Source of the DNA: Escherichia coli O127:H6 str. E2348/69
Lineage (GTDB): Bacteria; Pseudomonadota; Gammaproteobacteria; Enterobacterales; Enterobacteriaceae
Reading direction: 5' to 3' (one strand)
Length of the DNA stretch: 64,000 bases
Assembly: GCF_000026545.1 (NCBI RefSeq)
Contig: NC_011601.1
Shown here: positions 124 through 15,607 of the stretch, one piece after another
Numbering within the stretch: position 1 is the stretch's first letter
Layout: each line of letters opens with the position of its first letter
Notes under the pieces: model-generated
Told to the model about the DNA's origin: nothing
The model's input: the letters and a program-made list of their open reading frames with translations, nothing else
Databases searched by the model: none
Program-made: the position numbers and the translations under genes

Positions 124-1622
124 CAGAAACGCTCCAGTTCAGGGAAAGGTAAATGACCGTGATGCACATGCATGGCACCAAATTCAGCACAGCGGTGTAG
201 CGTGGGAATGTTTTTTCCTGGGTTCAGCAAACCATCGGGGTCAAACGCCGCCTTGACCGCATGGAAGGTCGTGATTTCATCGCTGTTGAACTGGGCGCAC
301 ATTTGATTGATTTTTTCGCGCCCGATGCCATGTTCCCCACTGATGCTGCCGCCAACTTCAACGCAGAGTTCGAGGATCTTCCCGCCCAGTTCTTCCGCGC
401 GGGCAAATTCACCGGGTTCGTTGGCATCGAAAAGGATTAACGGGTGCATGTTGCCGTCTCCGGCATGAAAGACGTTGGCAACGCGTAAATCATATTGCTG
501 CGATAAACGGGCAATGCCTTCCAGTACGCCTGGCAGGGCGCGGCGCGGGATGGTGCCATCCATGCAGTAGTAATCCGGGGAGATACGTCCTACCGCCGGG
601 AACGCATTTTTGCGACCGGCCCAGAAACGTACGCGCTCTGCTTCGTCCTGTGCCAGACGGACGTCAGTCGCACCCGCGTTCAACAAGATGTCGTTAACCT
701 GCTCGCAGTCTTCCTGTACGTCAGACTCCACGCCGTCCAGTTCGCATAACAAAATCGCTTCGGCATCGACGGGATAACCGGCATGAATAAAATCTTCCGC
801 CGCGCGAATCGACAGGTTATCCATCATCTCCAGCCCGCCGGGGATAATGCCATTGGCGATGATGTCACCAACCGCAAGTCCGGCTTTTTCTACCGAGTCA
901 AAGCTGGCTAACAGAACCCGCGCCACGGGCGGCTTCGGCAACAGCTTCACCGTTACTTCGGTGGTCACGCCGAGCATACCTTCCGATCCGGTAAACAGCG
1001 CCAGCAGGTCAAAACCAGGCGAATCCAGCGCGTCCGATCCCAGCGTCAGCGCCTCGCCATCCAGCGTTTGCACTTCAATTTTCAGCAGGTTATGTACGGT
1101 TAGACCATATTTCAGGCAGTGAACGCCACCGGCATTTTCCGCCACATTGCCGCCAATCGAACAGGCGATTTGTGAGGACGGATCCGGCGCGTAATAGAGA
1201 TTATGCGGCGCAACGGCCTGGGAGATCGCCAGGTTACGCACGCCCGGCTGCACGCGCGCGTGGCGACCAATGGGGTTAATGTCGAGGATCTCTTTAAAGC
1301 GCGCCATCACCAACAACACACCTTTTTCCAGCGGCAGCGCGCCACCAGAAAGCCCGGTGCCTGCGCCACGGGTCACCACCGGCACACGCAGGCGGTGGCA
1401 GACAGCCAGAATCGCCGTCACCTGTTCCATCTGCTTAGGCAGAACAACCAGTAATGGACGCGTGCGATACGCGCTCAACCCGTCACACTCGTAAGGAATG
1501 ATCTCCTCATCGGTATGCAGGATCTCCAGTCCAGGGACATGCTCACGCAGTGCCATCAGTACCGATGTGCGGTCGACTTCGGGTAAAGCGCCATCAAGAC
1601 GCTCTTCGTACAAGATGCTCAT
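123..1622 (-). CDS. glcD: Glycolate oxidase subunit GlcD (FAD-linked oxidase)
   Basis: 499-aa ORF; sequence recognised as E. coli GlcD; FAD-binding oxidase family. Confidence 0.95.
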   Translation of the reverse strand: MSILYEERLDGALPEVDRTSVLMALREHVPGLEILHTDEEIIPYECDGLSAYRTRPLLVVLPKQMEQVTAILAVCHRLRVPVVTRGAGTGLSGGALPLEKGVLLVMARFKEILDINPIGRHARVQPGVRNLAISQAVAPHNLYYAPDPSSQIACSIGGNVAENAGGVHCLKYGLTVHNLLKIEVQTLDGEALTLGSDALDSPGFDLLALFTGSEGMLGVTTEVTVKLLPKPPVARVLLASFDSVEKAGLAVGDIIANGIIPGGLEMMDNLSIRAAEDFIHAGYPVDAEAILLCELDGVESDVQEDCEQVNDILLNAGATDVRLAQDEAERVRFWAGRKNAFPAVGRISPDYYCMDGTIPRRALPGVLEGIARLSQQYDLRVANVFHAGDGNMHPLILFDANEPGEFARAEELGGKILELCVEVGGSISGEHGIGREKINQMCAQFNSDEITTFHAVKAAFDPDGLLNPGKNIPTLHRCAEFGAMHVHHGHLPFPELERF

Positions 1623-1872
1623 GAGTAGGGTTCGCTTTGTTGTGTTGTGTGGCAGCTGATTTTTTCGCGCTGCTTCTGTGAACAGTTATTAAGCGGGCTT
1701 TTCGTTTTCGTCTATATCTTTAGCTACCGGTCAGACCATTTTTTTTCCAGCTCTGTGACCTTGCTTTGGTTAACTTAATGTTAAATTGATGTAACATAAT
1801 CACTTACGTGATGTGCGTGTTTTGCGAGTTAAGAACAGAAAAATTGGTCCTACCTGTGCACGAGGTCCGGGA
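1623..1872. promoter_or_regulatory. Divergent glcC / glcDEFGB control region
   Basis: 250-bp AT-rich intergenic region between divergently transcribed glcD (-) and glcC (+); the GlcC-activated glc promoter is expected here. No individual sites mapped. Confidence 0.5.
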
Positions 1873-2637
1873 ATGAAAGATGAACGTCGCCCTATTTGCG
1901 AAGTGGTTGCAGAAAGTATCGAACGGTTAATTATCGACGGCGTACTGAAGGTCGGTCAGCCGCTTCCCTCGGAACGTCGACTGTGTGAAAAGCTCGGCTT
2001 CTCACGCTCCGCACTGCGTGAAGGGCTGACCGTGCTGCGCGGGCGCGGGATTATTGAAACGGCGCAGGGTCGCGATTCTCGTGTCGCACGGCTTAATCGG
2101 GTGCAGGACGCCAGCCCGCTGATCCATCTGTTCAGTACGCAGCCGCGAACGCTGTACGATCTGCTCGACGTTCGCGCATTACTGGAGGGCGAATCGGCAA
2201 GGCTGGCGGCAACGCTGGGAACGCAAGCTGATTTTGTTGTGATAACCCGCTGTTATGAAAAAATGCTCGCCGCCAGTGAGAACAACAAAGAGATTTCGCT
2301 GATCGAACATGCGCAGTTGGATCACGCTTTCCATCTCGCCATTTGTCAGGCTTCTCACAATCAGGTGTTGGTGTTTACACTGCAATCATTGACCGACCTG
2401 ATGTTTAATTCAGTGTTTGCCAGCGTAAATAATCTCTATCATCGACCACAGCAAAAAAAGCAGATCGATCGCCAGCATGCGCGGATCTACAACGCGGTGT
2501 TGCAGCGGCTGCCGCACGTCGCCCAGCGCGCAGCACGCGATCATGTGCGGACCGTGAAAAAGAATCTCCACGATATCGAGCTGGAAGGCCACCATTTGAT
2601 TCGCTCGGCGGTGCCGCTGGAGATGAAGCAGGGGTGA
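1873..2637 (+). CDS. glcC: GntR/FadR-family transcriptional activator of the glc operon
   Basis: ORF 1813..2637; start placed at the internal Met (MKDERRPICEV...) matching the remembered GlcC N-terminus; N-terminal GntR-type HTH. Confidence 0.9.
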   Translation: MKDERRPICEVVAESIERLIIDGVLKVGQPLPSERRLCEKLGFSRSALREGLTVLRGRGIIETAQGRDSRVARLNRVQDASPLIHLFSTQPRTLYDLLDVRALLEGESARLAATLGTQADFVVITRCYEKMLAASENNKEISLIEHAQLDHAFHLAICQASHNQVLVFTLQSLTDLMFNSVFASVNNLYHRPQQKKQIDRQHARIYNAVLQRLPHVAQRAARDHVRTVKKNLHDIELEGHHLIRSAVPLEMKQG

Positions 2638-2643
2638 CTGTCA

Positions 2644-3786
2644 TCAAATCTGCTTTTCATACAATCGGTAACGCTTGTACGGCTCCGCCCCAATGCGTTC
2701 CAGCATGTTATTCATGCCTGTATTGGTTTCGAGGATCCATGACATTTCCAGCGCATCGATCTTCCGACGGGCAAACGGATCGCGTAAGGCTTCAATCAAT
2801 AACAGCGCAATTACCGGGCCGATGCGGCTGAACTGATACTCGTCCCGCACGCCCATCAGCGGTACTCGCGCAGTTCGCACACCGCTGACTTTCAAACGCC
2901 ACAGCAATTTTGCCCAGCCGAAGGGAAAGAGCGATCCGTTCAGATCGGCAATCGCCTCGTTGATGTTCGGCAAGCCGACAATAAACGCGCAGGGTGCAGA
3001 ATCAATCTCAGCGATGTAGATCATATCGTCCGGCACCAGATATTTAAGTTGATCGCCCATGGTCGCGAATTCATGTTCGGTAAACGGCACAAATCCCCAG
3101 TTGTGCTGCCAGCCAGAATTGAAAATCTCACGCAGGATCTGCATCTCTTCGGCAAACCGCTGGCGATTGATGCAGCGAATGGTCACCTTTTTGCGCACCT
3201 GATCCATCAGTTTTTTTAGCGCCGGAGAGAAAGTGAGATCGGTTCGCTGCATCCACCACGCCAGTAAATCAATGCCTTTGTGATAACCCAGTTGTTCAAT
3301 ATGCGCGGCATACCACGGTTTGCCGTGTGGCATCATCGCACAGGGCGGAGTGTCAAAACCTTCAATCAGTAATCCGCTTTCCTGATTGATATTCAGGCTG
3401 AAAGGCCCGCTGATCTTACTTGCACCTTGTGACTTTAACCACGCTTCCGCTGTACCAAACAACGCGGCAAAAACCTGCGGATCATCAATGGCGTCAATCA
3501 TGCCGAAATGACCGGTATCTTCACCGTAACGCTCACGGTGCAAGGTATCTATTTGCGCGGTAATACGCCCAACTATCTGCCCCGCTTTTTTTGCCACCCA
3601 CGCCTGCCAGATGATATGGTCCGTCCCCGGATTCTTCGCAGACAAATGCTCGTTGCGTTCAATGAATAAAGGGGGTATCCAGTTTGGATCGTCGGGATAA
3701 AGTGATGACGGAAAAGCGATAAATGCCTTAAGGTCATTTTTATTAATTACTTTTTCAATTTTAATCATCAGCAGATCGCATTCCAT
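2644..3786 (-). CDS. yghO: YghO, full-length 380-aa form; candidate N-acyltransferase (remembered as a pseudogene in K-12)
   Basis: 380-aa intact ORF beginning MECDLLMIKIEKVINKNDLKAF...; divergent from the adjacent biosynthetic operon. Function inferred from context only; exact start (1st or 2nd Met) uncertain. Confidence 0.75.
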   Translation of the reverse strand: MECDLLMIKIEKVINKNDLKAFIAFPSSLYPDDPNWIPPLFIERNEHLSAKNPGTDHIIWQAWVAKKAGQIVGRITAQIDTLHRERYGEDTGHFGMIDAIDDPQVFAALFGTAEAWLKSQGASKISGPFSLNINQESGLLIEGFDTPPCAMMPHGKPWYAAHIEQLGYHKGIDLLAWWMQRTDLTFSPALKKLMDQVRKKVTIRCINRQRFAEEMQILREIFNSGWQHNWGFVPFTEHEFATMGDQLKYLVPDDMIYIAEIDSAPCAFIVGLPNINEAIADLNGSLFPFGWAKLLWRLKVSGVRTARVPLMGVRDEYQFSRIGPVIALLLIEALRDPFARRKIDALEMSWILETNTGMNNMLERIGAEPYKRYRLYEKQI

Positions 3787-4138
3787 AGTTCTGTGGGTAA
3801 CAAATAATTAACGGTGACAAACAGGTTGCAACAGCAACGAACGGCACCTTAACAATCAACCCAATGAATACAAACGACGAATAAATAGTATTATTAATGA
3901 TTACGATAAGGTCAGAGACTACACAGAAGCGCCTCAATGCCTTTTGTCGATTTAAGGCGACCGGACAAGGCTTCTTCTTAATATATTCATAAATTAAATA
4001 TCATTCACAAAAAAACTCAAACTCATTATTTAAATCAATGTTCATTTTCACACTGATGAAAATACTATCTCATTTATCTTTTATGCCTATATAATCCACC
4101 GCATTATTGTCATTTTATTTTGGATATCCAATTTTTTC
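3787..4138. promoter_or_regulatory. Divergent promoter region between yghO and the FAAL-reductase-ACP-AOS operon
   Basis: 352-bp strongly AT-rich intergenic region with several TATAAT-like hexamers separating divergent genes; no specific operator identified. Confidence 0.4.
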
Positions 4139-5872
4139 GTGGTGTATATGTCTAATAAAATCTTTACGCATTCCCTACCTATGCGCTATGCCGATTTTCC
4201 AACGCTGGTTGATGCTTTGGACTACGCCGCTCTGAGTAGCGCCGGAATGAATTTTTATGACAGACGTTGCCAACTTGAAGATCAACTGGAATATCAGACG
4301 TTAAAAGCGCGTGCCGAAGCTGGTGCGAAGCGGTTGTTATCGCTGAACCTGAAAAAAGGCGATCGCGTGGCGCTGATTGCCGAAACCAGTAGCGGGTTCG
4401 TAGAGGCTTTTTTTTCCTGCCAGTATGCCGGCTTAGTCGCCGTCCCGTTGGCGATTCCAATGGGCGTCGGTCAGCGGGATTCCTGGAGCGCCAAACTGCA
4501 GGGTTTACTGGCAAGTTGCCAGCCCGCAGCCATTATCACTGGTGATGAGTGGTTGCCACTGGTCAATGCCGCGACGCATAACAACAACCCCGAATTACAT
4601 GTTTTAAGCCACGCCTGGTTTAAGGCATTACCGGAAGCCGATGTTGCGCTCCAGCGTCCAGTTCCAAACGATATCGCCTACCTCCAGTACACCTCCGGCA
4701 GCACCCGTTTTCCCCGTGGCGTCATTATCACCCATCACGAAGTGATGGCTAATCTACGTGCTATAAGCCACGATGGCATTAAATTACGCCCTGGCGACCG
4801 CTGCGTCTCCTGGCTGCCTTTCTACCATGATATGGGACTGGTCGGCTTTCTCCTGACCCCCGTCGCCACGCAGCTTTCAGTAGATTATTTGCGCACTCAG
4901 GATTTTGCCATGCGTCCTCTGCAATGGCTTAAATTGATCAGTAAAAATCGCGGCACCGTTTCCGTTGCACCGCCGTTTGGCTATGAATTGTGCCAGCGCC
5001 GCGTGAATGAAAAAGATCTCGCTGAACTGGATCTTTCCTGCTGGCGCGTCGCTGGTATTGGAGCAGAACCGATCTCCGCAGAACAACTCCATCAATTCGC
5101 TGAATGTTTTCGTCAGGTTAACTTTGACGATAAAACTTTCATGCCGTGCTACGGACTGGCAGAAAATGCGCTGGCTGTCAGCTTCTCTGATGAAGCCTGC
5201 GGGGTTGTGGTTAACGAAGTGGATCGCGACATCCTCGAATACCAGGGTAAAGCCGTCGCGCCGGGTGCTGAAACACGCGCCGTATCGACTTTCGTCAACT
5301 GCGGTAAAGCGTTGCCGGAACATGGCATTGAAATCCGCAATGAAGCAGATATACCTGTCGCGGAACGTGTGGTAGGCCATATTTGCATCTCCGGCCCCAG
5401 CCTGATGAGCGGGTACTTTGGCGACCAGGTTTCGCAAGACGAGATTGCCGCGACGGGCTGGTTAGACACCGGCGACCTTGGTTATCTGCTGGACGGTTAT
5501 CTGTATGTCACCGGACGCATTAAAGATCTGATTATTATTCGTGGCCGTAATATCTGGCCGCAGGATATTGAATACATTGCGGAACAGGAACCGGAAATTC
5601 ATTCTGGCGATGCGATTGCTTTTGTTACCGCCCAGGAAAAAATCATTTTGCAGATCCAGTGTCGGATCAGCGACGAAGAACGTCGCGGGCAGCTTATCCA
5701 CGCGCTGGCAGCTCGGATCCAAAGCGAATTTGGCGTTACCGCGGATATCGATCTGTTGCCGCCCCACAGTATTCCCCGAACATCCTCCGGCAAGCCTGCC
5801 CGTGCGGAAGCGAAAAAACGTTATCAGAAGGCTTATGCTGCCAGTCTTCATGTGCAGGAATCCCTGGCATGA
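4139..5872 (+). CDS. AMP-dependent synthetase/ligase; fatty acyl-AMP ligase or acyl-ACP synthetase-like
   Basis: 577-aa ORF with adenylate-forming core motif YTSGSTRFPRGVIITH and downstream GYLYVTGRIKDLIIIRG motif typical of the ANL superfamily; stop overlaps next gene start (ATGA). Confidence 0.85.
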   Translation: MVYMSNKIFTHSLPMRYADFPTLVDALDYAALSSAGMNFYDRRCQLEDQLEYQTLKARAEAGAKRLLSLNLKKGDRVALIAETSSGFVEAFFSCQYAGLVAVPLAIPMGVGQRDSWSAKLQGLLASCQPAAIITGDEWLPLVNAATHNNNPELHVLSHAWFKALPEADVALQRPVPNDIAYLQYTSGSTRFPRGVIITHHEVMANLRAISHDGIKLRPGDRCVSWLPFYHDMGLVGFLLTPVATQLSVDYLRTQDFAMRPLQWLKLISKNRGTVSVAPPFGYELCQRRVNEKDLAELDLSCWRVAGIGAEPISAEQLHQFAECFRQVNFDDKTFMPCYGLAENALAVSFSDEACGVVVNEVDRDILEYQGKAVAPGAETRAVSTFVNCGKALPEHGIEIRNEADIPVAERVVGHICISGPSLMSGYFGDQVSQDEIAATGWLDTGDLGYLLDGYLYVTGRIKDLIIIRGRNIWPQDIEYIAEQEPEIHSGDAIAFVTAQEKIILQIQCRISDEERRGQLIHALAARIQSEFGVTADIDLLPPHSIPRTSSGKPARAEAKKRYQKAYAASLHVQESLA

Positions 5873-6783
5873 ATCAAACTGTCGCGGTGACGGGCGCTAC
5901 CGGGTTTATCGGTAAATATATTATTGATAACCTGCTCGCCCGCGGCTTTCACGTTCGCGCATTAACGCGTACTGCCCGCGCTCACGTCAATGATAATCTC
6001 ATCTGGGTGCGCGGTTCGCTGGAAGATACACATTCGCTTAGCGAACTGGTTGCCGGAGCCAGCGCGGTGGTCCATTGCGCCGGACAAGTGCGCGGACACA
6101 AAGAAGAGATTTTTACCCGCTGTAACGTTGACGGCAGCCTGCGCCTGATGCAAGCGGCAAAAGAGAGCGGCTTTTGCCAACGTTTTCTGTTTATCTCTTC
6201 GCTGGCGGCGCGCCATCCCGAACTCTCCTGGTACGCAAATTCCAAACACGTCGCCGAACAACGACTGATCGCAATGGCTGACGAAATTACGCTGGGCATT
6301 TTTCGCCCGACAGCCGTGTATGGTCCCGGCGATAAAGAGTTAAAACCGCTGTTTGACTGGATGCTGCGCGGCCTGCTGCCACGACTTGGTGCGCCAGATA
6401 CACAACTCTCTTTCCTGCACGTCACCGATTTTGCGCAAGCAGTGGGTCAGTGGTTAAACGCCGAAACTGTACAGACGCAAACCTATGAATTATGCGATGG
6501 CGTCGCTGGCGGCTATGACTGGCAACGCGTACGACAGCTTGCCGCCGAAGCCCGTTGTGGTTCTGTGCGGATGGTTGGCATTCCTCTGCCGCTACTCACC
6601 TGCCTTGCGGATATCAGTACTGCGTTGAGTCGCCTGGCAGGTAAAGAACCTATGCTGACCCGCTCGAAAATTCGTGAATTAACCCACGCCGACTGGTCGG
6701 CAAATAATAACCGTATTTCTGAAGATATTAATTGGTTTCCCGGGATTAGCCTGGAACACGCATTACGCAACGGGCTATTTTGA
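5869..6783 (+). CDS. NAD(P)-dependent epimerase/dehydratase-family oxidoreductase (extended SDR); candidate 3-keto reductase
   Basis: Start chosen at ATG 5869 (MNQTVAVTGATGFIGKYIIDNL...), giving an N-terminal Rossmann GxxGxxG motif; the longer ORF from 5659 would overlap the upstream gene by 200 bp and is rejected. Confidence 0.8.
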   Translation: MNQTVAVTGATGFIGKYIIDNLLARGFHVRALTRTARAHVNDNLIWVRGSLEDTHSLSELVAGASAVVHCAGQVRGHKEEIFTRCNVDGSLRLMQAAKESGFCQRFLFISSLAARHPELSWYANSKHVAEQRLIAMADEITLGIFRPTAVYGPGDKELKPLFDWMLRGLLPRLGAPDTQLSFLHVTDFAQAVGQWLNAETVQTQTYELCDGVAGGYDWQRVRQLAAEARCGSVRMVGIPLPLLTCLADISTALSRLAGKEPMLTRSKIRELTHADWSANNNRISEDINWFPGISLEHALRNGLF

Positions 6784-6814
6784 TTGTCTTGTTTAAAGGT
6801 GTGTTAACGTTTCT

Positions 6815-7063
6815 ATGGTAAATCGTGAAATAGTAATGGATTACATCCTTTCCTGTTTACAGGATTTGGTCGAAAACGGTGTGGAAATTAAGCCCGACAG
6901 CGATCTCGTCAACGATCTTGGCCTGGAGTCGATCAAAGTGATGGATCTCTTAATGATGCTGGAAGACAGATTCGATATTTCCATTCCTATTAATATTCTG
7001 CTGGATGTCAAAACCCCTGCGCAATTAATGGAAACTCTACTTCCATGGCTGGAGAATAAATAA
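6815..7063 (+). CDS. Acyl carrier protein (phosphopantetheine-binding)
   Basis: 82-aa acidic ORF with ACP-like motif DLGLESIKVMDLLMMLEDRF (conserved Ser attachment site); AAAGG ribosome-binding site upstream; stop overlaps next start (TAATG). Confidence 0.8.
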   Translation: MVNREIVMDYILSCLQDLVENGVEIKPDSDLVNDLGLESIKVMDLLMMLEDRFDISIPINILLDVKTPAQLMETLLPWLENK

Positions 7064-8235
7064 TGGGGCTATACGATAAATATGCGCGCCTTGCTGGCGA
7101 GCGCCTGCAATTTAGTGATAACGGGTTAACACCATTTGGCACCTGTATTGATGAAGTATATTCCGCCACCGAAGGCCGGATCGGCAATAAAAAAGTGATT
7201 CTGGCCGGGACCAATAATTATCTCGGTTTAACCTTTAATCATGATGCTATCCGCGAAGGTCAGGCAGCGTTAGCGGCCCAAGGCACTGGCACCACCGGTT
7301 CTCGTATGGCAAACGGCAGTTATGCGCCGCATCTGGCGTTAGAGAAAGAGATTGCCGAGTTTTTCAATCGCCCTACCGCTATCGTTTTTTCAACCGGTTA
7401 TACAGCTAATTTAGGCGTCATCAGCGCACTTGCCGACCATAACGCCGTGGTGTTACTGGATGCCGACAGCCACGCCAGTATTTATGACGCCTGTTCTCTC
7501 GGCGGCGCAGAGATTATTCGTTTCCGCCATAATGACGTCAACGATCTGGAACGGCGCATGGTCCGCCTCGGTGAACGGGCGAAAGAGGCGATTATTATCG
7601 TTGAAGGCATCTACAGTATGCTCGGTGACGTTGCGCCGCTGGCAGAAATTGTTGATATCAAACGTCGTCTCGGTGGTTATTTGATTGTCGATGAAGCACA
7701 TTCGTTTGGCGTGTTAGGCGTAACAGGCCGCGGACTGGTTGAAGCCGTTGGCGTTGAAGACGACGTGGATATTATCGTCGGCACCTTCAGTAAAAGTTTG
7801 GCTTCCATTGGTGGTTTTGCCGTGGGTTCAGAAGCGATGGAAGTGCTGCGCTACGGCAGCCGCCCGTATATTTTTACCGCCTCTCCTTCTCCGTCCTGCA
7901 TTGCGACCGTGCGCTCGTCGTTAAGAACCATTGCCACACAACCAGAGTTGCGGCAAAAACTGATGGATAACGCCAACCATCTGTATGACGGTCTGCAAAA
8001 ACTGGGTTACGAGTTAAGTTCACATATTAGCCCGGTAGTGCCAGTAATAATCGGTTCGAAAGAGGAAGGTTTACGCATCTGGCGCGAGCTTATTTCGCTG
8101 GGCGTTTATGTGAATCTTATCCTGCCACCTGCCGCGCCTGCAGGCATCACGCTGCTGCGCTGTAGCGTAAACGCTGCCCACAGTCGTGAGCAAATCGATG
8201 CCATCATTCAGGCATTTGCTACTCTGAAGCAGTAA
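7063..8235 (+). CDS. PLP-dependent alpha-oxoamine synthase (serine palmitoyltransferase / 8-amino-7-oxononanoate synthase family)
   Basis: 390-aa ORF with class-II aminotransferase features: HSFG motif and PLP-lysine motif GTFSKSLASIGGF. A paralogue of BioF/Kbl, but co-operonic with an ACP and an acyl-AMP ligase. Confidence 0.85.
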   Translation: MGLYDKYARLAGERLQFSDNGLTPFGTCIDEVYSATEGRIGNKKVILAGTNNYLGLTFNHDAIREGQAALAAQGTGTTGSRMANGSYAPHLALEKEIAEFFNRPTAIVFSTGYTANLGVISALADHNAVVLLDADSHASIYDACSLGGAEIIRFRHNDVNDLERRMVRLGERAKEAIIIVEGIYSMLGDVAPLAEIVDIKRRLGGYLIVDEAHSFGVLGVTGRGLVEAVGVEDDVDIIVGTFSKSLASIGGFAVGSEAMEVLRYGSRPYIFTASPSPSCIATVRSSLRTIATQPELRQKLMDNANHLYDGLQKLGYELSSHISPVVPVIIGSKEEGLRIWRELISLGVYVNLILPPAAPAGITLLRCSVNAAHSREQIDAIIQAFATLKQ

Positions 8236-8241
8236 TGTGAA

Positions 8242-8272
8242 CCCGCCGTGGTGTTGCGCCACGGCGGGTTTA
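8242..8272. terminator. Bidirectional intrinsic terminator between convergent operons
   Basis: Perfect inverted repeat CCCGCCGTGG-(7 nt)-CCACGGCGGG followed by TTTA, between the plus-strand AOS gene and the minus-strand LptG-like gene. Confidence 0.7.
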
Positions 8273-9349
8273 ATGTTGTCTGTCATGCCAATACACCAGG
8301 CTCAACGCCACCAGCACAAACGCTACCGGTAAACCGAGCGCGGTAACAGGTGCGCTCAACGCAAATAGCAATCCCAGATTGACCATGATTTGATAGCTGA
8401 TCCAGGTGAGTAAACCAACGATGACCCCTACAGCGAGACGGCTACCCATCCTAGGCGAGCGCGGGGCACTAAAGGTAAACGGCACAGCCAGCAAAATCAT
8501 CGCCAGAGTCAAGATGGGTTGCCCCAGTTTTTCCCACAGTGCAAGGCGGTATTCGCTGCTGGGTTGCCCGGTTTCCTGCAAATAATGGATGTAATGATTA
8601 AGCTGACGGACAGAAAAAGTATTTCCCGGCATCGATAACTCTTCAAGATTCATACTGGTGAAGGTCGATTGCCAGGCAAGATAATCAGATGTTTCCTGCG
8701 TTTCTTTGCCATTCAGCCATTTTTTATGATTCACACCATGCAGGATCCACGTTTTGTCATCTTCAATGGTGGCACTGCGCGCATAAATGTAGGATTCGAG
8801 CGAGAGATCATCGCGGTAATGAAATATCTCCACGTCCACCGGCTGGCCCTGCTCGTTCAGCGATTTCACCGTCACAAATTCATTACCACGCCTGGCCCAC
8901 AGCATATTGCCGGTAATGTCATCGTCCTCCCCCAACGCAGTGGCAGTCGATTTGATTTGCAGCGCCTGTTGCTGCAATGGCGACGCCACCCACTCATCTA
9001 TCGCGCCTAATGAAACAGTCCACAATATCCCGGCAACCAGCGCCACCAGTGCAATACGGAAGATAGAAAACCCCGTGCTGCGAATGGCGGTAAGCTCACT
9101 GTTTTTCGATAACTGCCCCAGGCCGACAATCCCTCCCAATAAGGCGATAAACGGCGAAAGTTCGACCAGTGTGCGCGGTAAGGTCATCAGCACCACCAGC
9201 ACCGCCTGAGTCCAGCGATAACCACCCGGGCTGACATCATCCAGTTCGTTAATCAGGTTGAAGGTGGTAAAAAGCGGCAGCAATAGCCCTGCGGCGGCGG
9301 CAAAACCGAGAAAGAGATGACGGATTAAATAGCGACTGAAAACATTCAT
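8270..9349 (-). CDS. LptG-like permease (YjgP/YjgQ family)
   Basis: Multi-pass membrane protein; start placed at Met of MNVFSRYLIRHLFLGF..., which overlaps the upstream gene stop (ATGA). Resembles LptF/LptG N-termini and topology, with a central periplasmic domain. Confidence 0.75.
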   Translation of the reverse strand: MNVFSRYLIRHLFLGFAAAAGLLLPLFTTFNLINELDDVSPGGYRWTQAVLVVLMTLPRTLVELSPFIALLGGIVGLGQLSKNSELTAIRSTGFSIFRIALVALVAGILWTVSLGAIDEWVASPLQQQALQIKSTATALGEDDDITGNMLWARRGNEFVTVKSLNEQGQPVDVEIFHYRDDLSLESYIYARSATIEDDKTWILHGVNHKKWLNGKETQETSDYLAWQSTFTSMNLEELSMPGNTFSVRQLNHYIHYLQETGQPSSEYRLALWEKLGQPILTLAMILLAVPFTFSAPRSPRMGSRLAVGVIVGLLTWISYQIMVNLGLLFALSAPVTALGLPVAFVLVALSLVYWHDRQH

Positions 9350-10416
9350 CGGGAAAATTTCTGCAGCAAAGAGAAGTCGCGTGCGACCAACATCAGCAGG
9401 CCCATTAGCATGAGTCCGGGTACTAACCACAAACCAGGAATGAGGGGAATCGCGCCGTTAGCCACCAGCGTACGGCAGACGTCGCCGCCATAAAAAATGG
9501 CAACAAACAGCAACGTCAGTGGCAATAACGTTGAAAATCGCCCTTGCCGCGGTTTTACCCGACTTAATGAAATGGCCAGCAGCGCCATCAACAATGCTGT
9601 CAGGCCACGGCTTTGTCGCCATTGCAGTTCGGCATGATCGGCAGGAAAGGCGGAGCGCGCCAGCTCCGTGACCGATTTTGCTTTGCGTTTGACGTTAGGG
9701 CTTTGATCCAGCGGATTCAGATGTAATTGCAGATTACGGTAGATCTGTTCGTTGTCGTCACGCCCCTGATGATCGAGAAGATAGGCGGTCCCGTTATGCA
9801 ACATAACGGTCGGTTTCTCAGGTGATGGGTCAACCACATCAACCGAACGGGCGCGGAAAATGCGGGTTCGATTAGCAGTAGAAGTATAAATCAGCGCGTC
9901 AGTCAGGCGATTATTATCCTGATCAACCGTCTGCGAAAGGATCATTCGTCCGTTATCGTTAGTGTTAAATTGCTTTGCCCGCAACTGGCGAACATCCAGC
10001 TCCGACTGTGACTGTTGCTCCAGTTGATAAATCTGCGCATAAGCCCACGGACGACCATACATCGACAGAAGGGTGACAAAAATACTTAGCGGTATCGCCA
10101 GATAAAGAACGGCTTTGTACAAGCGTCCCGGACTGCCCCCCGCCGCAGAGATAGCGGTAATTTCCGAGTCGGTATACATCTGCCCTAGCGTCACGCCAAC
10201 TGACACATACAGTCCAACAGGTAACAACATCTCCAGTGCAATCAGCACTTTGTAGAAAACGATATCCAGCACAACATCAAGAGCTAATGTCCCATTTGCC
10301 GCTTCGGTCAGATAACGCTGTGCGGAGTAGCTGGCGAAAATAAAGATCAGAAAACCGACGATAATCAGCACCAGACGGCGCGTACCACGCATGATGTAGT
10401 GTTCAACCAGCTTCAT
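9346..10416 (-). CDS. LptF-like permease (YjgP/YjgQ family)
   Basis: 356-aa ORF MKLVEHYIMRGTRRLVLIIVGFLIF...; hydrophobic N- and C-terminal segments with a central soluble domain, as in LptF/LptG; translationally coupled to the downstream permease. Confidence 0.75.
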   Translation of the reverse strand: MKLVEHYIMRGTRRLVLIIVGFLIFIFASYSAQRYLTEAANGTLALDVVLDIVFYKVLIALEMLLPVGLYVSVGVTLGQMYTDSEITAISAAGGSPGRLYKAVLYLAIPLSIFVTLLSMYGRPWAYAQIYQLEQQSQSELDVRQLRAKQFNTNDNGRMILSQTVDQDNNRLTDALIYTSTANRTRIFRARSVDVVDPSPEKPTVMLHNGTAYLLDHQGRDDNEQIYRNLQLHLNPLDQSPNVKRKAKSVTELARSAFPADHAELQWRQSRGLTALLMALLAISLSRVKPRQGRFSTLLPLTLLFVAIFYGGDVCRTLVANGAIPLIPGLWLVPGLMLMGLLMLVARDFSLLQKFSR

Positions 10417-10445
10417 CTCACTAACGCCCTCAATCCTTTGAATTT

Positions 10446-11009
10446 TTATTCATTGATCAGCTTCTGCGCCAGCGCAATGACATGATCTACCTCTTCCGGC
10501 GTCAGGCTGCCGTCCTTTGCCCACTGAATTTGCCCGGTTTTATTCAGCACCAGAATGGTTGAACTCTGCTCCTGCAAGTGCCAGGCAACGCGTCCCTGTC
10601 CATTGCCGTCAATAACGAATTGCGCCCATGGATAGCGGCGTTTATTTTTTTCGATTTTGCCAACGACAAAATAGCCGGTACCAAAGATGGCATCATCAGT
10701 GTTCACAATGGTGGTGGGCTGAAAACGATCCTGCGGAAAGTTTGCCGCTTCAACTGCTTTAATTAACAGTGAGTTCTTTTTCTTCGCCGACTTACGCCCG
10801 GCGATATACTGAATAATGCGAACTTTTCCTGCCAATTGGGTGCTGTTCCACTTTTGGTAGTGAATTTCGTCGTCGCTATTCCGAAGCAGCTCGCCGCCTT
10901 CCTGGATATAAACGGGGGTAACCGTTTTGCCAGTGACGAAATTGTGTGCCTGCACACCCGGGGCTAAGAGCATGATAATCAGCGCAATAATCAAACGAGA
11001 TGACATCAT
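10446..11009 (-). CDS. Secreted periplasmic protein, YtfJ-like
   Basis: 187-aa ORF with N-terminal signal peptide (MMSSRLIIALIIMLLAPGVQA); family assignment is from memory of YtfJ-type proteins, not a search. Confidence 0.5.
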   Translation of the reverse strand: MMSSRLIIALIIMLLAPGVQAHNFVTGKTVTPVYIQEGGELLRNSDDEIHYQKWNSTQLAGKVRIIQYIAGRKSAKKKNSLLIKAVEAANFPQDRFQPTTIVNTDDAIFGTGYFVVGKIEKNKRRYPWAQFVIDGNGQGRVAWHLQEQSSTILVLNKTGQIQWAKDGSLTPEEVDHVIALAQKLINE

Positions 11010-11017
11010 TGCTCCGG

Positions 11018-11842
11018 TTATAGCGGAAAACGCGAAATCAGCAGTTCTAAGCGCTGGCGAATATCGCTATCCAGCGCCATCGGTGCATCATACGACTGGC
11101 GGTTTTCCATATCATCCGCCACCATGTCGTCGTGTTTATCCCCCATCAGGCCATTAATGGCGGCGAGGAAGCGGGAAATCTGTAACGCCTCTTTATTTTC
11201 AGGATCAAGCGATCTTAAGGTGTCGTAATAAGAAACCTGCTGGCTGATGATTTTTCGCACATCATGAAATTCCCTGCCAGTTAGTTGCGGTTTAGCAATA
11301 ATCTCTTTCAGGATGTACATTTGCTTCTGGCGGTAGGCGATAAAACCGTTCACGGTTTCTAACTGGCTATGGCGCAATGAATAGTTCACCAGCCACCAGA
11401 CAGGGGAGCTCAAATAAACACGTAACAGGTTACCGTAAAACGACACAATATTTTTCTTACCGTTACGAAAGCCATCCTGAAAATGCCCAAGAAAAACGGT
11501 CGTTTTGCCGAATAAAAATCCAGCCTGATGCTTCTTTAAATACAGCCGTTGCGCAAAACGCAGATGCTTGTAGCGCGCTCGCATGTATTTAAACTGTTTG
11601 CGCTCGTCTGTCGTCAGCTCATCGCCTTTCGCCTGTTTGCGGATTAAACGCAGTAACTCCTGACGATTAACACCATCCAGCCAGAATTTCAGGCATAACG
11701 CGTAATTATCATGGATGATTTCGGTGGTACAACTTAGTGCGATAGTCGGCGGCAAACTGACCTGTGCATCAACAACATCATCTTCTTCAATCGCAACAAA
11801 TAGACGCTCGCTCGCCTCAAGCGGGAAATATTTTCTCATCAT
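11018..11842 (-). CDS. Hypothetical basic protein, operon member of unknown function
   Basis: 274-aa ORF with no signal peptide or obvious transmembrane segments; start overlaps the yghQ stop by 1 nt; no recognisable catalytic motif. Confidence 0.6.
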   Translation of the reverse strand: MMRKYFPLEASERLFVAIEEDDVVDAQVSLPPTIALSCTTEIIHDNYALCLKFWLDGVNRQELLRLIRKQAKGDELTTDERKQFKYMRARYKHLRFAQRLYLKKHQAGFLFGKTTVFLGHFQDGFRNGKKNIVSFYGNLLRVYLSSPVWWLVNYSLRHSQLETVNGFIAYRQKQMYILKEIIAKPQLTGREFHDVRKIISQQVSYYDTLRSLDPENKEALQISRFLAAINGLMGDKHDDMVADDMENRQSYDAPMALDSDIRQRLELLISRFPL

Positions 11843-13191
11843 CAGGATTTCTCTCCGGTTGAGTTATAAAGCAAGGAATGGCGCTGAAAAAATGCCTTTA
11901 AGGTCGGAATTAGCGAGAGCACCACATCCAGACATTGCCCACCGAAGTAAGCAAATGCAGCCCCCAGCACGCCAAACAGATGACAGAACATGAACAGCAA
12001 TACGATGTAGCCGATTGAGGCGATGGTTTGCGCCACGAGAAAAGCGCGCTGTTTTCCCGCCATCAATAGCAATGACTCCTGTGGGAAGCCCAGCATCGAA
12101 ATCACAATTGCGCCCAGCATCACCTGAATCAGGTCATACGCTTCGAGATACTTAACGCCAAACACCAGCGAAATGAGCGGCTTGCCGACGATCAACACCG
12201 CGAGCGCCACCAGAATACCGATTCCGCCCGCCAGTAAACCGGACTTCACGCCTAACAACCACGGTCTGGTGGTGCGTGGATCTAAACGCATCACCTCTGG
12301 ATAAAAACTTTTGCCCAGTAAACCCGCTGGCGTTCCGGCGGCATCGAAGAATGTCATGGCGATTTTAAATAACCCGACAGCAGCGGGTCCTAACACGATC
12401 CCCACCAACACTGTGCTGCACGAGTTACGCGCCGACCAGATGGAGTGGGCAATGTTGGTTGACCAGACAAAACTCCACGCGCCTTTAATGTGTCGGGCAG
12501 ACTCAAACAGATTCAATTTGAAGGCGTTATGGATATTTCTGCGGCGTAATTCGCGCGCGGCAAACCACCAGTACATGGTGCCGCCAACCAGATTCGACAC
12601 GTACCAGGCAATAACAAAACCCGCAAAACCAAAGTCAAAATACCAGGCTACGACGCTCCCCGCTGCGCGCAGAAAAGGTTTCGTCGCCTGCTGTACAGCA
12701 ATCAAATCAAAGCGATCTACCGCACGCAGAATGCCGGTCGGCGTGGAGGAAGCCATTGAAGGAATGAGCGTGCAATAGAGCGCCGCCAGCCAAAAGCTTT
12801 GGTCATCCAGACCTAATGAATGGGAAAGGAATGGCAGTAAGGCAATGCCGCCGACAATCGCCACCGCGCCGCTGACGATATCCAGCGAGAAGGAAAATGA
12901 GACAACATTGCGAAATTGCTGCGGATTATTGTTGGTCAAGGCCGGCGTTCCGTACTGGACCACCAGTTGCCATGTCTGAAACTTAATAAAATCGCTGATC
13001 GATTTGGCGTACGATTGCACAATTACCAGTACGCCAAACATGGCGGGCGTCATCCCTTTACCGGCACACGAGAGCGCCAACAGCCCCAGCAAAGCGCTCA
13101 CAACATTACTGGAGCCTAACCAGGCGCTATTGCGAATAATGGTGCGAAACGCGCCATCTGCAAACCAATGTTTGATGTTTAAACCCGCCAA
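11842..13191 (-). CDS. yghQ: Polysaccharide/lipid flippase-like inner membrane protein (MOP superfamily), full-length YghQ
   Basis: 449-aa polytopic membrane ORF; the K-12 YghQ is remembered as shorter (N-terminally truncated), and this copy appears to be the intact form. Confidence 0.8.
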   Translation of the reverse strand: MAGLNIKHWFADGAFRTIIRNSAWLGSSNVVSALLGLLALSCAGKGMTPAMFGVLVIVQSYAKSISDFIKFQTWQLVVQYGTPALTNNNPQQFRNVVSFSFSLDIVSGAVAIVGGIALLPFLSHSLGLDDQSFWLAALYCTLIPSMASSTPTGILRAVDRFDLIAVQQATKPFLRAAGSVVAWYFDFGFAGFVIAWYVSNLVGGTMYWWFAARELRRRNIHNAFKLNLFESARHIKGAWSFVWSTNIAHSIWSARNSCSTVLVGIVLGPAAVGLFKIAMTFFDAAGTPAGLLGKSFYPEVMRLDPRTTRPWLLGVKSGLLAGGIGILVALAVLIVGKPLISLVFGVKYLEAYDLIQVMLGAIVISMLGFPQESLLLMAGKQRAFLVAQTIASIGYIVLLFMFCHLFGVLGAAFAYFGGQCLDVVLSLIPTLKAFFQRHSLLYNSTGEKS

Positions 13192-13236
13192 TTCAGCCTG
13201 ACCTTATCGTTGATAGTAAAAAGTATCCCGCCAGCC

Positions 13237-13995
13237 TTAAGTTAAACTTCGGCGGTCAGAAACGATGGCAACCAGAGAAACCGCCTTCTGTGCCTGTTCC
13301 AGCACCTCGCTGTAAGGCGCTCTGGAATCAATCTCAAGAATTTTTGTGCCGTTATAGCCAATCGTCGACATGACGCCGATTTTGTCCTGCAGCTCGGCAT
13401 AGTCATGGTCAGGCTTGCGGGAGATGGCAGTATCAATATCAATCCCCAAGCGAATGATTAATTCAGGACGGTATTGCGCCATTTGTTGGTATAAGCGCCG
13501 TTCGCGCTGCGCCAGAAACATGCTGATTTTCCCGGTCGCACGTTCGACGCCGATCCCCGGTCCGTCATAATAAAAGCCCGAAATTTCAGCCTGCGGGAAG
13601 CGATCGCTGACCACCAGAACGCCACTTTGCGCCAGTCGCTGAACCTTGCGCAGATTCGCCATTCTTCGCAGCGAGAAGCAGTACATAATCACCGCCGCCC
13701 ATAGCGCCGGAGATTTGGTTTTCATGCTTTGGGTTTTCGAGGATTTGGCCGCCAGTCGCCGTTCCAGCCAGACGCCAACCAACGGCAACCGTTTGATTTT
13801 GTCGCCGTCTTCGCCTGAGAGCAGCCCCAGATAGCGGCGCTCGGTTTGCCAGTGTTGTTGCAGCGATTTCACCAGGTCAGTGGTCAGTGTGGATTTACCG
13901 GTGCCATCACACCCGACCACCGCAATCAGCCCCGGAATGTAGTTGGGCTGCGGCGCGGTTGTACTCTTAACAGTTTGTGTTTGTAGTGCATCCAT
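13237..13995 (-). CDS. yghR: P-loop NTPase, kinase-like (YghR)
   Basis: 252-aa ORF; Walker A GCDGTGKST plus VVSDRFPQ (DRY/F-like motif of nucleoside/nucleotide-kinase-fold proteins); paralogue of the next two genes. Confidence 0.85.
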   Translation of the reverse strand: MDALQTQTVKSTTAPQPNYIPGLIAVVGCDGTGKSTLTTDLVKSLQQHWQTERRYLGLLSGEDGDKIKRLPLVGVWLERRLAAKSSKTQSMKTKSPALWAAVIMYCFSLRRMANLRKVQRLAQSGVLVVSDRFPQAEISGFYYDGPGIGVERATGKISMFLAQRERRLYQQMAQYRPELIIRLGIDIDTAISRKPDHDYAELQDKIGVMSTIGYNGTKILEIDSRAPYSEVLEQAQKAVSLVAIVSDRRSLT

Positions 13996-14026: not shown

Positions 14027-14740
14027 TCAGGAAAGCGCGGCGTGAATTGCGCGTAGTGACGCTTGCAGAATTTCATCGGCTGGTTGCCGACCATCCAGTT
14101 CAAGGATCTTTGCGCCATTGAATGTCAGTTGCGGCGTAACGGCGATTTTTTCCTGTAACGCTGCCAGTTGGTGGTCAGGTTTACGCGCAAACGCGGTTTG
14201 TTCATCAATGCCAAGACGAATCAACAATACGGGCAAATAAGACGCCATCCATTGGTACAGCTTCAGCTCGCGCTGCCTTAACATTTTTATCCAACCGTTA
14301 CCGCCCGTGGTTTTTGCCAATTGCGGGCCATCAAAGCGAAAACCCGGCACTTCAACCTGCGGGTAGCGGTCGGTGATGAGCAGATAGCCTTGCTGGCTTT
14401 TACACAACATTTTGCGAAACTTGTACGCCCGCCAGCAGGAAAGCAGATAGATAACCAGCGCAGTAATATTGCCAGGCGGTGTTAAGGGCTTTTCGTGCAC
14501 ATGTGCCGCTTTACTTCGCAAATAACGCCCAAAAGGTGCGCCAATAACAGGGAGCTGTGAAATCCATTCGCCAATTCGCCCGGACGATTGCCCGAGATAA
14601 ATGTGTTCTGTTGGCATTCTTGATGCCAGTTCATTTACCAGGCTTGCCGTGAGGGTCGATTTACCTGAACCATCACATCCTACAATGGCAATAACACGCA
14701 CTGGCGTGGAATTAATTATTGACATATTACGTTGATTCAC
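14027..14740 (-). CDS. yghS: P-loop NTPase, kinase-like (YghS)
   Basis: 237-aa ORF; Walker A GCDGSGKST and LITDRYPQ motif; paralogue of YghR and YghT. Confidence 0.85.
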   Translation of the reverse strand: MNQRNMSIINSTPVRVIAIVGCDGSGKSTLTASLVNELASRMPTEHIYLGQSSGRIGEWISQLPVIGAPFGRYLRSKAAHVHEKPLTPPGNITALVIYLLSCWRAYKFRKMLCKSQQGYLLITDRYPQVEVPGFRFDGPQLAKTTGGNGWIKMLRQRELKLYQWMASYLPVLLIRLGIDEQTAFARKPDHQLAALQEKIAVTPQLTFNGAKILELDGRQPADEILQASLRAIHAALS

Positions 14741-14914
14741 GAAAAACCCGGCAGCAAATAATGTATTGAATATTACGTGGTCCGTGCTCAGAATATCCGT
14801 TCAACCTTATTGTGACAATGGTTAATTGTGACATTGACCTGAATTACGCTTTCATCAAAAACATATTAACCAAATAAATATTTTGGATGGACATTTAAAT
14901 TTAAGGATATATTC

Positions 14915-15607
14915 ATGCAGTCAATAATACCTCCATTAATTGCCGTTATTGGTAGCGATGGTTCAGGCAAGTCAACGGTGTGTGAACATCTTATTACCGT
15001 TGTCGAAAAATATGGTGCTGCCGAAAGGGTTCATTTAGGAAAACAGGCCGGAAATGTCGGTCGTGCAGTGACAAAATTACCGTTGATGGGAAAATCCTTA
15101 CATAAAACAATTGAACGAAATCAGGTAAAAATAGCAAAAAAATTGCCGGGACCAGTTCCGGCGCTGGTAATTACAGCGTTTGTCGCCCGCCGCTTACTGC
15201 GCTTTCGTCATATGCTTGCCTGTCGTCGTCGCGGGTTAATTGTTTTAACCGACCGTTATCCGCAGGAACAGATTCCTGGCGCTTATGATGGTACGGTGTT
15301 CCCGCCTAACGTTGAAGGTGGTCGTTTTGTCTCATGGCTGGCAAGTCAGGAACGTAAAGCATTTCACTGGATGGCGAGCCATAAGCCCGATCTGGTCATC
15401 AAACTCAATGTCGATCTGGACGTAGCCTGCGCGCGTAAGCCTGACCACAAAAGAGAATCGCTGGAAAGGAAGATAGCAATAACGCCACAGTTAACCTTTG
15501 GAGGCGCGCAACTGGTTGATATCGATGCCAATCAACCGCTGGAACAAGTGCTGGTTGATGCGGAAAAAGCGATTACGGATTTTATGACCGCGCGTGGTTA
15601 TCACTAG
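14915..15607 (+). CDS. yghT: P-loop NTPase, kinase-like (YghT)
   Basis: 230-aa ORF; Walker [10 protein letters not shown] and VLTDRYPQ motif; divergently transcribed from yghS. Confidence 0.85.

Follow-up and report, generated by a model that had tools for sequence, protein, structure and literature searches.

The yghO gene of Escherichia coli O127:H6 str. E2348/69 probably encodes the E. coli orthologue of the bacterial ceramide synthase named bCerS, Aca or CerS. The window analysed here, i.e. the whole 64,000-nucleotide stretch, carries the gene at 2644..3786 on the minus strand, next to a divergent operon for the synthesis of a sphingoid base. The reading of the product as a tandem-GNAT N-acyltransferase of the bCerS/Aca group draws on the open reading frame, the RefSeq annotation, the 374-aa homologues, an AlphaFold2 model with its fold matches, and published orthology. 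The complete explanation, to which we assign a probability of about 0.8, is that YghO N-acylates the base made by the operon, that the resulting lipid is exported by the products of neighboring genes, and that K-12 lost the pathway through an IS5-associated deletion. The orthology of yghO to bCerS/Aca, the E. coli sphingolipid locus and the IS5 deletion of K-12 are already published knowledge.

In the list of open reading frames of the window, yghO is uninterrupted, starts with ATG and codes for 380 aa. The window matches E2348/69 at 100%, and the RefSeq annotation of that genome reports the same CDS (2644..3786, minus strand) as 'protein YghO'; the uninterrupted frame of 380 codons described in the initial annotation is therefore borne out. 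Homologues from other Enterobacterales are 374 aa long, and their first residue is the equivalent of E. coli Met7. The six additional N-terminal codons of the annotated gene (3769-3786) read MECDLL in the window and MERELL in another E. coli, and are absent in other genera. Because the homologues start at the Met7 equivalent and the six codons differ among E. coli strains, the functional start probably lies at the ATG at 3768, so that the product would have 374 aa and the annotated start would be off by 18 nt.

The dN/dS values of yghO, between 0.04 and 0.06 (about 0.05), also between distant E. coli alleles, indicate strong purifying selection. The allele of E. coli SCPM-O-B-8794 (L003, 10001-11125) is unusually divergent, with 88 nucleotide differences and a dS of 0.36 relative to the window, for a dN/dS of 0.058, which suggests either an old allele or recombination at the locus. 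On the other side of the gene, yghO converges with glcC, their stop codons being only 6 bp apart (window 2637-2644), and the pair is listed as an excludon candidate, i.e. with overlapping transcripts, in K-12 RNA-seq data (PMC12288877).

Comparison of YghO with the Pfam and NCBIfam models gave no match, and a sequence search of the PDB with the single protein returned noise only. The family is large and uniform: 6,468 cluster representatives were detected at E<=1e-3, most of them 370-400 aa long and matching end to end. Some longer proteins, P0121 (784 aa), P0133 (630 aa) and P0191 (940 aa), carry a full YghO-like unit fused to extra sequence; P0121 matches YghO in two stretches, suggesting duplication or fusion. 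Among 88 family members, 9 match the GNAT model PF00583 at E<=1e-3 and 35 do so at E<=0.1, and a profile of the family weakly matches the GNAT structure 3tt2 over the C-terminal 70 residues (E 0.0025).

A structural model of YghO was built with AlphaFold2 from an alignment of 88 sequences, and reached a pLDDT of 96.9 and a pTM of 0.93. Its top fold matches in the PDB, obtained by using Foldseek, are all tandem-GNAT proteins: 2wpw (5e-16), 5kf1, 7q3a, MshD (1ozp), VipF, Eis and FemX. The whole 374-aa chain is confidently modelled as two GNAT domains. The fold prediction that the initial annotation had called for points in this way to an enzymatic tandem-GNAT fold, and not to a DNA-binding one; no helix-turn-helix or other DNA-binding domain was found in YghO by Pfam, NCBIfam or fold search. 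The names 'DNA-binding transcriptional regulator', 'DNA-binding protein' and 'dATP pyrophosphohydrolase', attached to family members in the databases, are unsupported by the fold. No transmembrane-like segment was detected, the maximum Kyte-Doolittle value being 1.36, and YghO is predicted to be a soluble or peripheral cytoplasmic protein of about 43 kDa.

The two domains differ in their sequence motifs. The C-terminal one carries the non-canonical stretch VRDEYQFSRIGP at the position expected for the beta4-alpha3 loop (residues 307-318 of the 374-aa form); this pyrophosphate-binding loop is degenerate (VRDEYQFSRIG) compared with the canonical Q/R-x-x-G-x-G/A. R308 does not vary in the 15-sequence alignment A2, nor does G306 in either of the two YghO alignments. 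A loop of the Q/R-x-x-G-x-G/A type is absent from the N-terminal domain. Because it matches GNAT profiles and carries the degenerate loop, the C-terminal domain is probably the half which binds the acyl-CoA or other acyl-thioester. E341, W344, N349, K365 and Y367 are near-invariant in the family, and may be regarded as candidate catalytic or binding residues.

The assignment of a function relies on a two-step link. YghO from the window is identical to the BL21(DE3) protein (ECD_02850) at 378 of 380 residues (99%), and ECD_02850 matches in turn Caulobacter CC_1154 (bCerS), with an E value of 1e-107, 44% identity and 98% coverage (PMC9386255 Table S2). In the same work (Padilla-Gómez et al. 2022), the BL21(DE3) locus is drawn with aasR (ECD_02851), epi (ECD_02852), acpR (ECD_02853), spt (ECD_02854) and 'aca: yghO ECD_02850'. 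Ceramide formation in Caulobacter requires five genes, among them CC_1154 (CCNA_01212; bCerS/CerS) (PMC11324152; PMC11087976), and the CC_1154 product has been reported as peripheral, without transmembrane segments (PMC11087976). The features of the bCerS/Aca family, namely full-length homology, a GNAT fold without transmembrane segments and association with sphingolipid genes, are all seen in YghO. Published orthology to CC_1154 and the modelled tandem-GNAT fold together support the identification of YghO as the E. coli orthologue of bCerS/Aca/CerS, and with it the proposal of the initial annotation that this protein is the candidate for the N-acylating step. A literature search found no enzymatic or genetic experiment on E. 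coli YghO.

The likeness to the Caulobacter system extends to the gene content. YghO and the Caulobacter enzyme belong to a family of single GNAT-type proteins of about 375-390 aa, without a transmembrane segment, and the locus of each also contains aasR, acpR, spt, an SDR reductase gene and lptF2/lptG2. In Caulobacter, however, the bCerS gene lies several genes away from the operon (CC_1154 versus CC_1162-1165), whereas E. coli yghO is immediately divergent from aasR-spt; the phosphoglycerate head-group genes and lptC2 of Caulobacter are missing from the E. coli locus, where a ytfJ-like gene, a gene for a 274-aa protein, yghQ and yghRST are found instead. The solved tandem-GNAT proteins, such as 2wpw from the clavulanic-acid pathway, 5kf1 (C. 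acetobutylicum glucosamine N-acetyltransferase), 7q3a (MAB_4324) and 1ozp (the mycothiol synthase MshD), share the two-GNAT architecture of YghO (E 5e-16 to 3e-12, TM about 0.56-0.72), but their identity to it is 10-14%, and YghO exceeds them by about 50 residues and contains inserted helices. They use acetyl-CoA on small polar amines, whereas YghO would be expected to attach a long acyl chain to a lipid amine. The eukaryotic ceramide synthases (CerS/Lag1, TLC domain) carry out the reaction proposed for YghO, N-acylation of a sphingoid base, but are unrelated, multi-pass membrane proteins, unlike the soluble or peripheral bacterial GNAT; the literature refers to this as convergent evolution.

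Four genes on the plus strand, aasR, the reductase gene epi/CerR, acpR and spt, form the operon divergent from yghO. The product of the first, aasR (4148..5872), is a fatty acyl-AMP ligase with the role of a specialised acyl-ACP synthetase; it scores 867 bits with NCBIfam NF006624, whose cutoff is 600. The gene is followed, with a 4-nt overlap at its stop, by epi/CerR (5869..6783), coding for an NAD-dependent epimerase/dehydratase-family reductase, which PMC9386255 names as the epi homologue ECD_02852. Next comes acpR (6815..7063), for a specialised acyl carrier protein; its matches to ACP models are all below the curated cutoffs, RefSeq names it 'acyl carrier protein', and it is described in PMC9386255. 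The last gene, spt (7063..8235), matches the serine palmitoyltransferase equivalog NF047599 of NCBIfam with 597 bits against a cutoff of 500, and overlaps at its start with the stop of acpR. Two of the three junctions have overlapping stop and start codons, as would be expected of a single operon.

Downstream of spt, the genes run on the minus strand. An lptG paralogue of the LptG2 type (8270..9349 by RefSeq coordinates; TIGR04408), coding for a putative sphingolipid exporter permease, and an lptF paralogue of the LptF2 type (9346..10416; TIGR04407) correspond to genes of the UTI89 locus in the LptF2/G2 study. That study, posted by the Klein laboratory as a preprint in 2026, presents the sphingolipid operons of E. 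coli UTI89 and demonstrates a role of the Caulobacter LptF2/LptG2 paralogues in sphingolipid transport. A YtfJ-family gene (10446..11009; TIGR01626) is kept, by synteny, in the enterobacterial versions of the locus, as is a gene for a 274-aa protein (11018..11842), at 51-91% identity; the latter protein has no match in Pfam or NCBIfam. The family scan identifies yghQ (11842..13191) as coding for a MOP-flippase-like membrane protein, and comparison with K-12 reveals that its 3' end is deleted there. No other acyltransferase gene was found in the E. coli locus by the family scan or in the RefSeq annotation.

Three further genes, yghR (13237-13995, minus strand), yghS (14027-14740, minus strand) and yghT (14915-15607, plus strand), have products that resemble P-loop kinases and carry annotations as nucleotide or dTMP kinases. 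The genes accompany the sphingolipid locus in Erwinia (L008), Rosenbergiella (L012, L014), Cedecea (L016), Mangrovibacter (L019) and a betaproteobacterial MAG (L055), and may be part of the pathway, e.g. for head-group modification. Between yghS and yghT lies a second AT-rich divergent gap (14741-14914, GC about 0.35), which heads the packed minus-strand string yghS-yghR-yghQ-274aa-ytfJ-like-lptF2-lptG2 running towards spt.

The conservation of this arrangement was evaluated on the best 80 loci, one genome per species, with YghO homologues of 47-96% identity found by a profile from 15 sequences; Caulobacter is not among these 80. Neighboring genes were called by tblastn with the window proteins, within 10 kb of the homologue. 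At least one locus gene (spt, aasR, lptF2/G2 etc.) was found at this distance in 75 of the 80 best loci, spt in 42 and lptF2/lptG2 paralogues in 51, while aasR is immediately adjacent and divergent in 38, across a gap of 236-1345 bp with a GC content below the locus mean. The divergent yghO/aasR pair occurs in the Enterobacterales Shimwellia, Pluralibacter, Serratia, Erwinia, Tatumella, Citrobacter, Pseudocitrobacter, Rosenbergiella, Cedecea, Hafnia and Mangrovibacter, and also in Pseudomonas, Salinicola, other gamma- and betaproteobacterial genomes and Gemmatimonadetes. This recurrent divergent pairing supports a functional coupling of yghO and the synthase operon. In Nitrospira loci aasR and spt are present, but farther from the homologue than the gap limit used; in Nitrosomonas-type loci the YghO homologue adjoins lptF2/G2, not spt. 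Shimwellia pseudoproteus has two YghO copies, one within a full sphingolipid locus (L004) and the second (L015, 74% identity) without locus genes within 10 kb.

The initial annotation had described yghO as disrupted in K-12, with an IS element in place of the adjacent region, and BLAST comparison of the K-12 locus with the window confirmed it. Homology of MG1655 to the window ends at 3746 and resumes at 12123, with a 1,194-bp IS5 in between; by BLAST and the K-12 annotation, the segment replaced in MG1655 spans 3747..12122, for a total of 8,376 missing bp. IS5 has thus taken the place of the 5' end of yghO and of 8.4 kb overall: the first 13 yghO codons, the intergenic region, the four-gene operon, the lptG and lptF paralogues, the YtfJ-family gene, the 274-aa gene and the 3' end of yghQ. 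K-12 yghO is a chimeric ORF rather than a frame-broken one, its first 11 codons (MISYQGLVRTF) coming from IS5-side sequence, and its native start and promoter are lost. PGAP calls it an intact 378-aa CDS, the flagged pseudogene being yghQ.

The locus was also searched for in 5,426 complete E. coli genomes. Both yghO (>=80%) and the gap are present in 4139 of them (about 76%), spt in 4092, and at least 80% of window 1600-13300 in 4,047. Partial yghO sequences occur in about 412 genomes, including the K-12 type of the K-12 derivatives, and no yghO was found in about 875. Deletion types other than that with the K-12 IS5 are represented by four genomes (H26, H30, H70, H78): one strain lacks yghO to acpR and retains spt onward, and others retain only the edges of the locus. 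The alignment proposed in the initial annotation, against K-12 and other E. coli genomes, shows in sum a K-12 locus different in content and a majority of intact ones: the locus is as a rule intact in E. coli, and it has been lost independently several times, K-12 representing one of these losses.

The intergenic region between yghO and the operon extends for 352 bp (3787-4138) when measured to the GTG at 4139, and for 361 bp (3787..4147) when measured to the RefSeq ATG at 4148. Its GC content is 0.324, or 0.33 for 3787..4147, against 0.506 for the window, and only 0.4% of the 352-bp segments in the 64 kb are as AT-rich. Coordinates and composition agree with the earlier description of a divergent arrangement across a 352-bp AT-rich region. 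The promoters of both yghO and the aasR operon should lie in this shared gap. A consensus scan of 2500-4300 for promoters and terminators returned 3 promoter-like sites against 3.3 expected, i.e. the chance level. A perfect TATAAT hexamer at 4090..4095 (plus strand), 52 bp upstream of the aasR ATG, is put forward as a candidate -10 element of the operon; another E. coli and Pseudocitrobacter share it in part. When the gap was aligned across genera, conservation was limited to the TATAAT-like hexamer and the ribosome-binding region by aasR, and no conserved block resembling an operator emerged. The inverted repeats of the gap, short and AT-rich, were taken as chance occurrences. A search for Pho boxes, prompted by the phosphate-regulated sphingolipids of Caulobacter, gave no match within the window. 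The conserved divergent arrangement suggests coupled expression of yghO and the operon; since the gap scans, the alignment and the Pho-box search found no shared regulatory element, co-regulation is put forward here as a suggestion. Silencing of the 32% GC gap by a nucleoid protein of the H-NS type is a reasonable guess.

The pathway proposed for E. coli would begin with AasR loading a fatty acid onto its dedicated carrier, as was shown for the BL21 proteins, where AasR acylates AcpR (PMC9386255). Spt would then condense acyl-AcpR with serine to 3-oxo-sphinganine; the BL21 enzyme is active on these substrates, and co-expression of E. coli AasR, AcpR and Spt from plasmids led to formation of 3-oxo-sphinganine (PMC9386255). 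YghO would transfer a second acyl chain, from an acyl thioester (CoA or ACP), to the C2 amino group of the long-chain base, so that its product would be an (oxo)dihydroceramide. The SDR-type reductase may act before or after N-acylation; the order of the two steps is disputed in Caulobacter (PMC9386255; PMC11087976). The neighboring lptF2/lptG2 and yghQ products would move the lipid towards the outer membrane. Both transcription units would start in the shared AT-rich gap, and K-12 would have lost the pathway by the IS5-associated 8.4-kb deletion. BL21 with empty vectors, in which the chromosomal locus is present, showed an ordinary E. coli lipid profile only, 3-oxo-sphinganine being reported solely upon plasmid co-expression of the three genes (PMC9386255), and the locus therefore appears to be silent in laboratory culture. 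The literature search revealed no description of a sphingolipid from E. coli, nor of its trigger or regulation.

The same fold and genomic context may be read in other ways. YghO might be a GNAT of the same locus acting on another amine, such as the head group or a different amino-lipid intermediate, while a different enzyme N-acylates the ceramide. The substrate is not readable from the fold, the closest solved structures belong to enzymes which acetylate small amines or sugars (the glucosamine N-acetyltransferase 5kf1, MshD), and some homologues are located away from spt, as in the Nitrosomonas loci and for the second Shimwellia copy (L015). The E. coli locus, however, encodes no other acyltransferase, the Caulobacter orthologue is required for ceramide formation and not for head-group steps (PMC11324152; PMC11087976), and the orthology, at 44% identity, is full-length (PMC9386255), which makes this possibility unlikely. 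Far less probable, and close to negligible, is that YghO is a DNA-binding regulator of the divergent operon, as in the legacy annotation, or a protein lysine acetyltransferase. Divergent gene pairs often include a regulator, and family members still bear the names 'DNA-binding transcriptional regulator' and 'DNA-binding protein', but the confident modelling of the whole chain as two GNAT domains, and the lack of a DNA-binding domain in the Pfam and fold searches, led to rejection of a regulator identity. As for lysine acetylation, K-12 YghO was among 25 GNAT candidates in a published screen, but not among the proteins giving acetylated bands, although the K-12 clone has a chimeric N-terminus; the screen leaves this identity unsupported.

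A different doubt concerns the locus rather than the enzyme, namely that E. coli retains YghO and the operon as an evolutionary relic, without expression or present function, and intact only incidentally. The ordinary lipid profile of BL21, in spite of its chromosomal locus (PMC9386255), would agree with a relic, as would the repeated losses seen in K-12, in the about 875 genomes without yghO and in the partial deletions (H26, H30, H70). Against it stand the activity of BL21 AasR, AcpR and Spt when expressed (PMC9386255), the retention of the locus in about 76% of complete E. coli genomes, the preserved operon architecture with overlapping stop and start codons, and the dN/dS of 0.04-0.06, indicative of strong purifying selection on yghO even between distant E. 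coli alleles. A relic is improbable on these grounds, slightly more so than action of YghO on another amine, and we retain the reading of YghO as the ceramide synthase of a maintained pathway.

Sphingolipids were long thought to be rare in bacteria and absent from E. coli. The idea of a ceramide-based lipid in E. coli is implied by the literature, and the present data would extend it, at what we consider even odds, to the following picture: an undescribed ceramide-based outer-membrane lipid is within the capacity of most natural E. coli, EPEC E2348/69, UPEC and BL21 among them, under non-laboratory conditions, with YghO as the ceramide synthase and the AT-rich gap as a silenced switch, and the lipid was missed because K-12 has deleted the pathway. 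What the finding adds is mainly a pointer to the expression conditions and to the lipid product. For annotation, yghO would be better named a putative bacterial ceramide synthase, rather than 'DNA-binding regulator' or the bare 'protein YghO'. The locus shows sphingolipid capacity to be ancestral and common in E. coli, the standard laboratory strain being a deletion mutant for the locus, and this matters whenever envelope biology is extrapolated from K-12.
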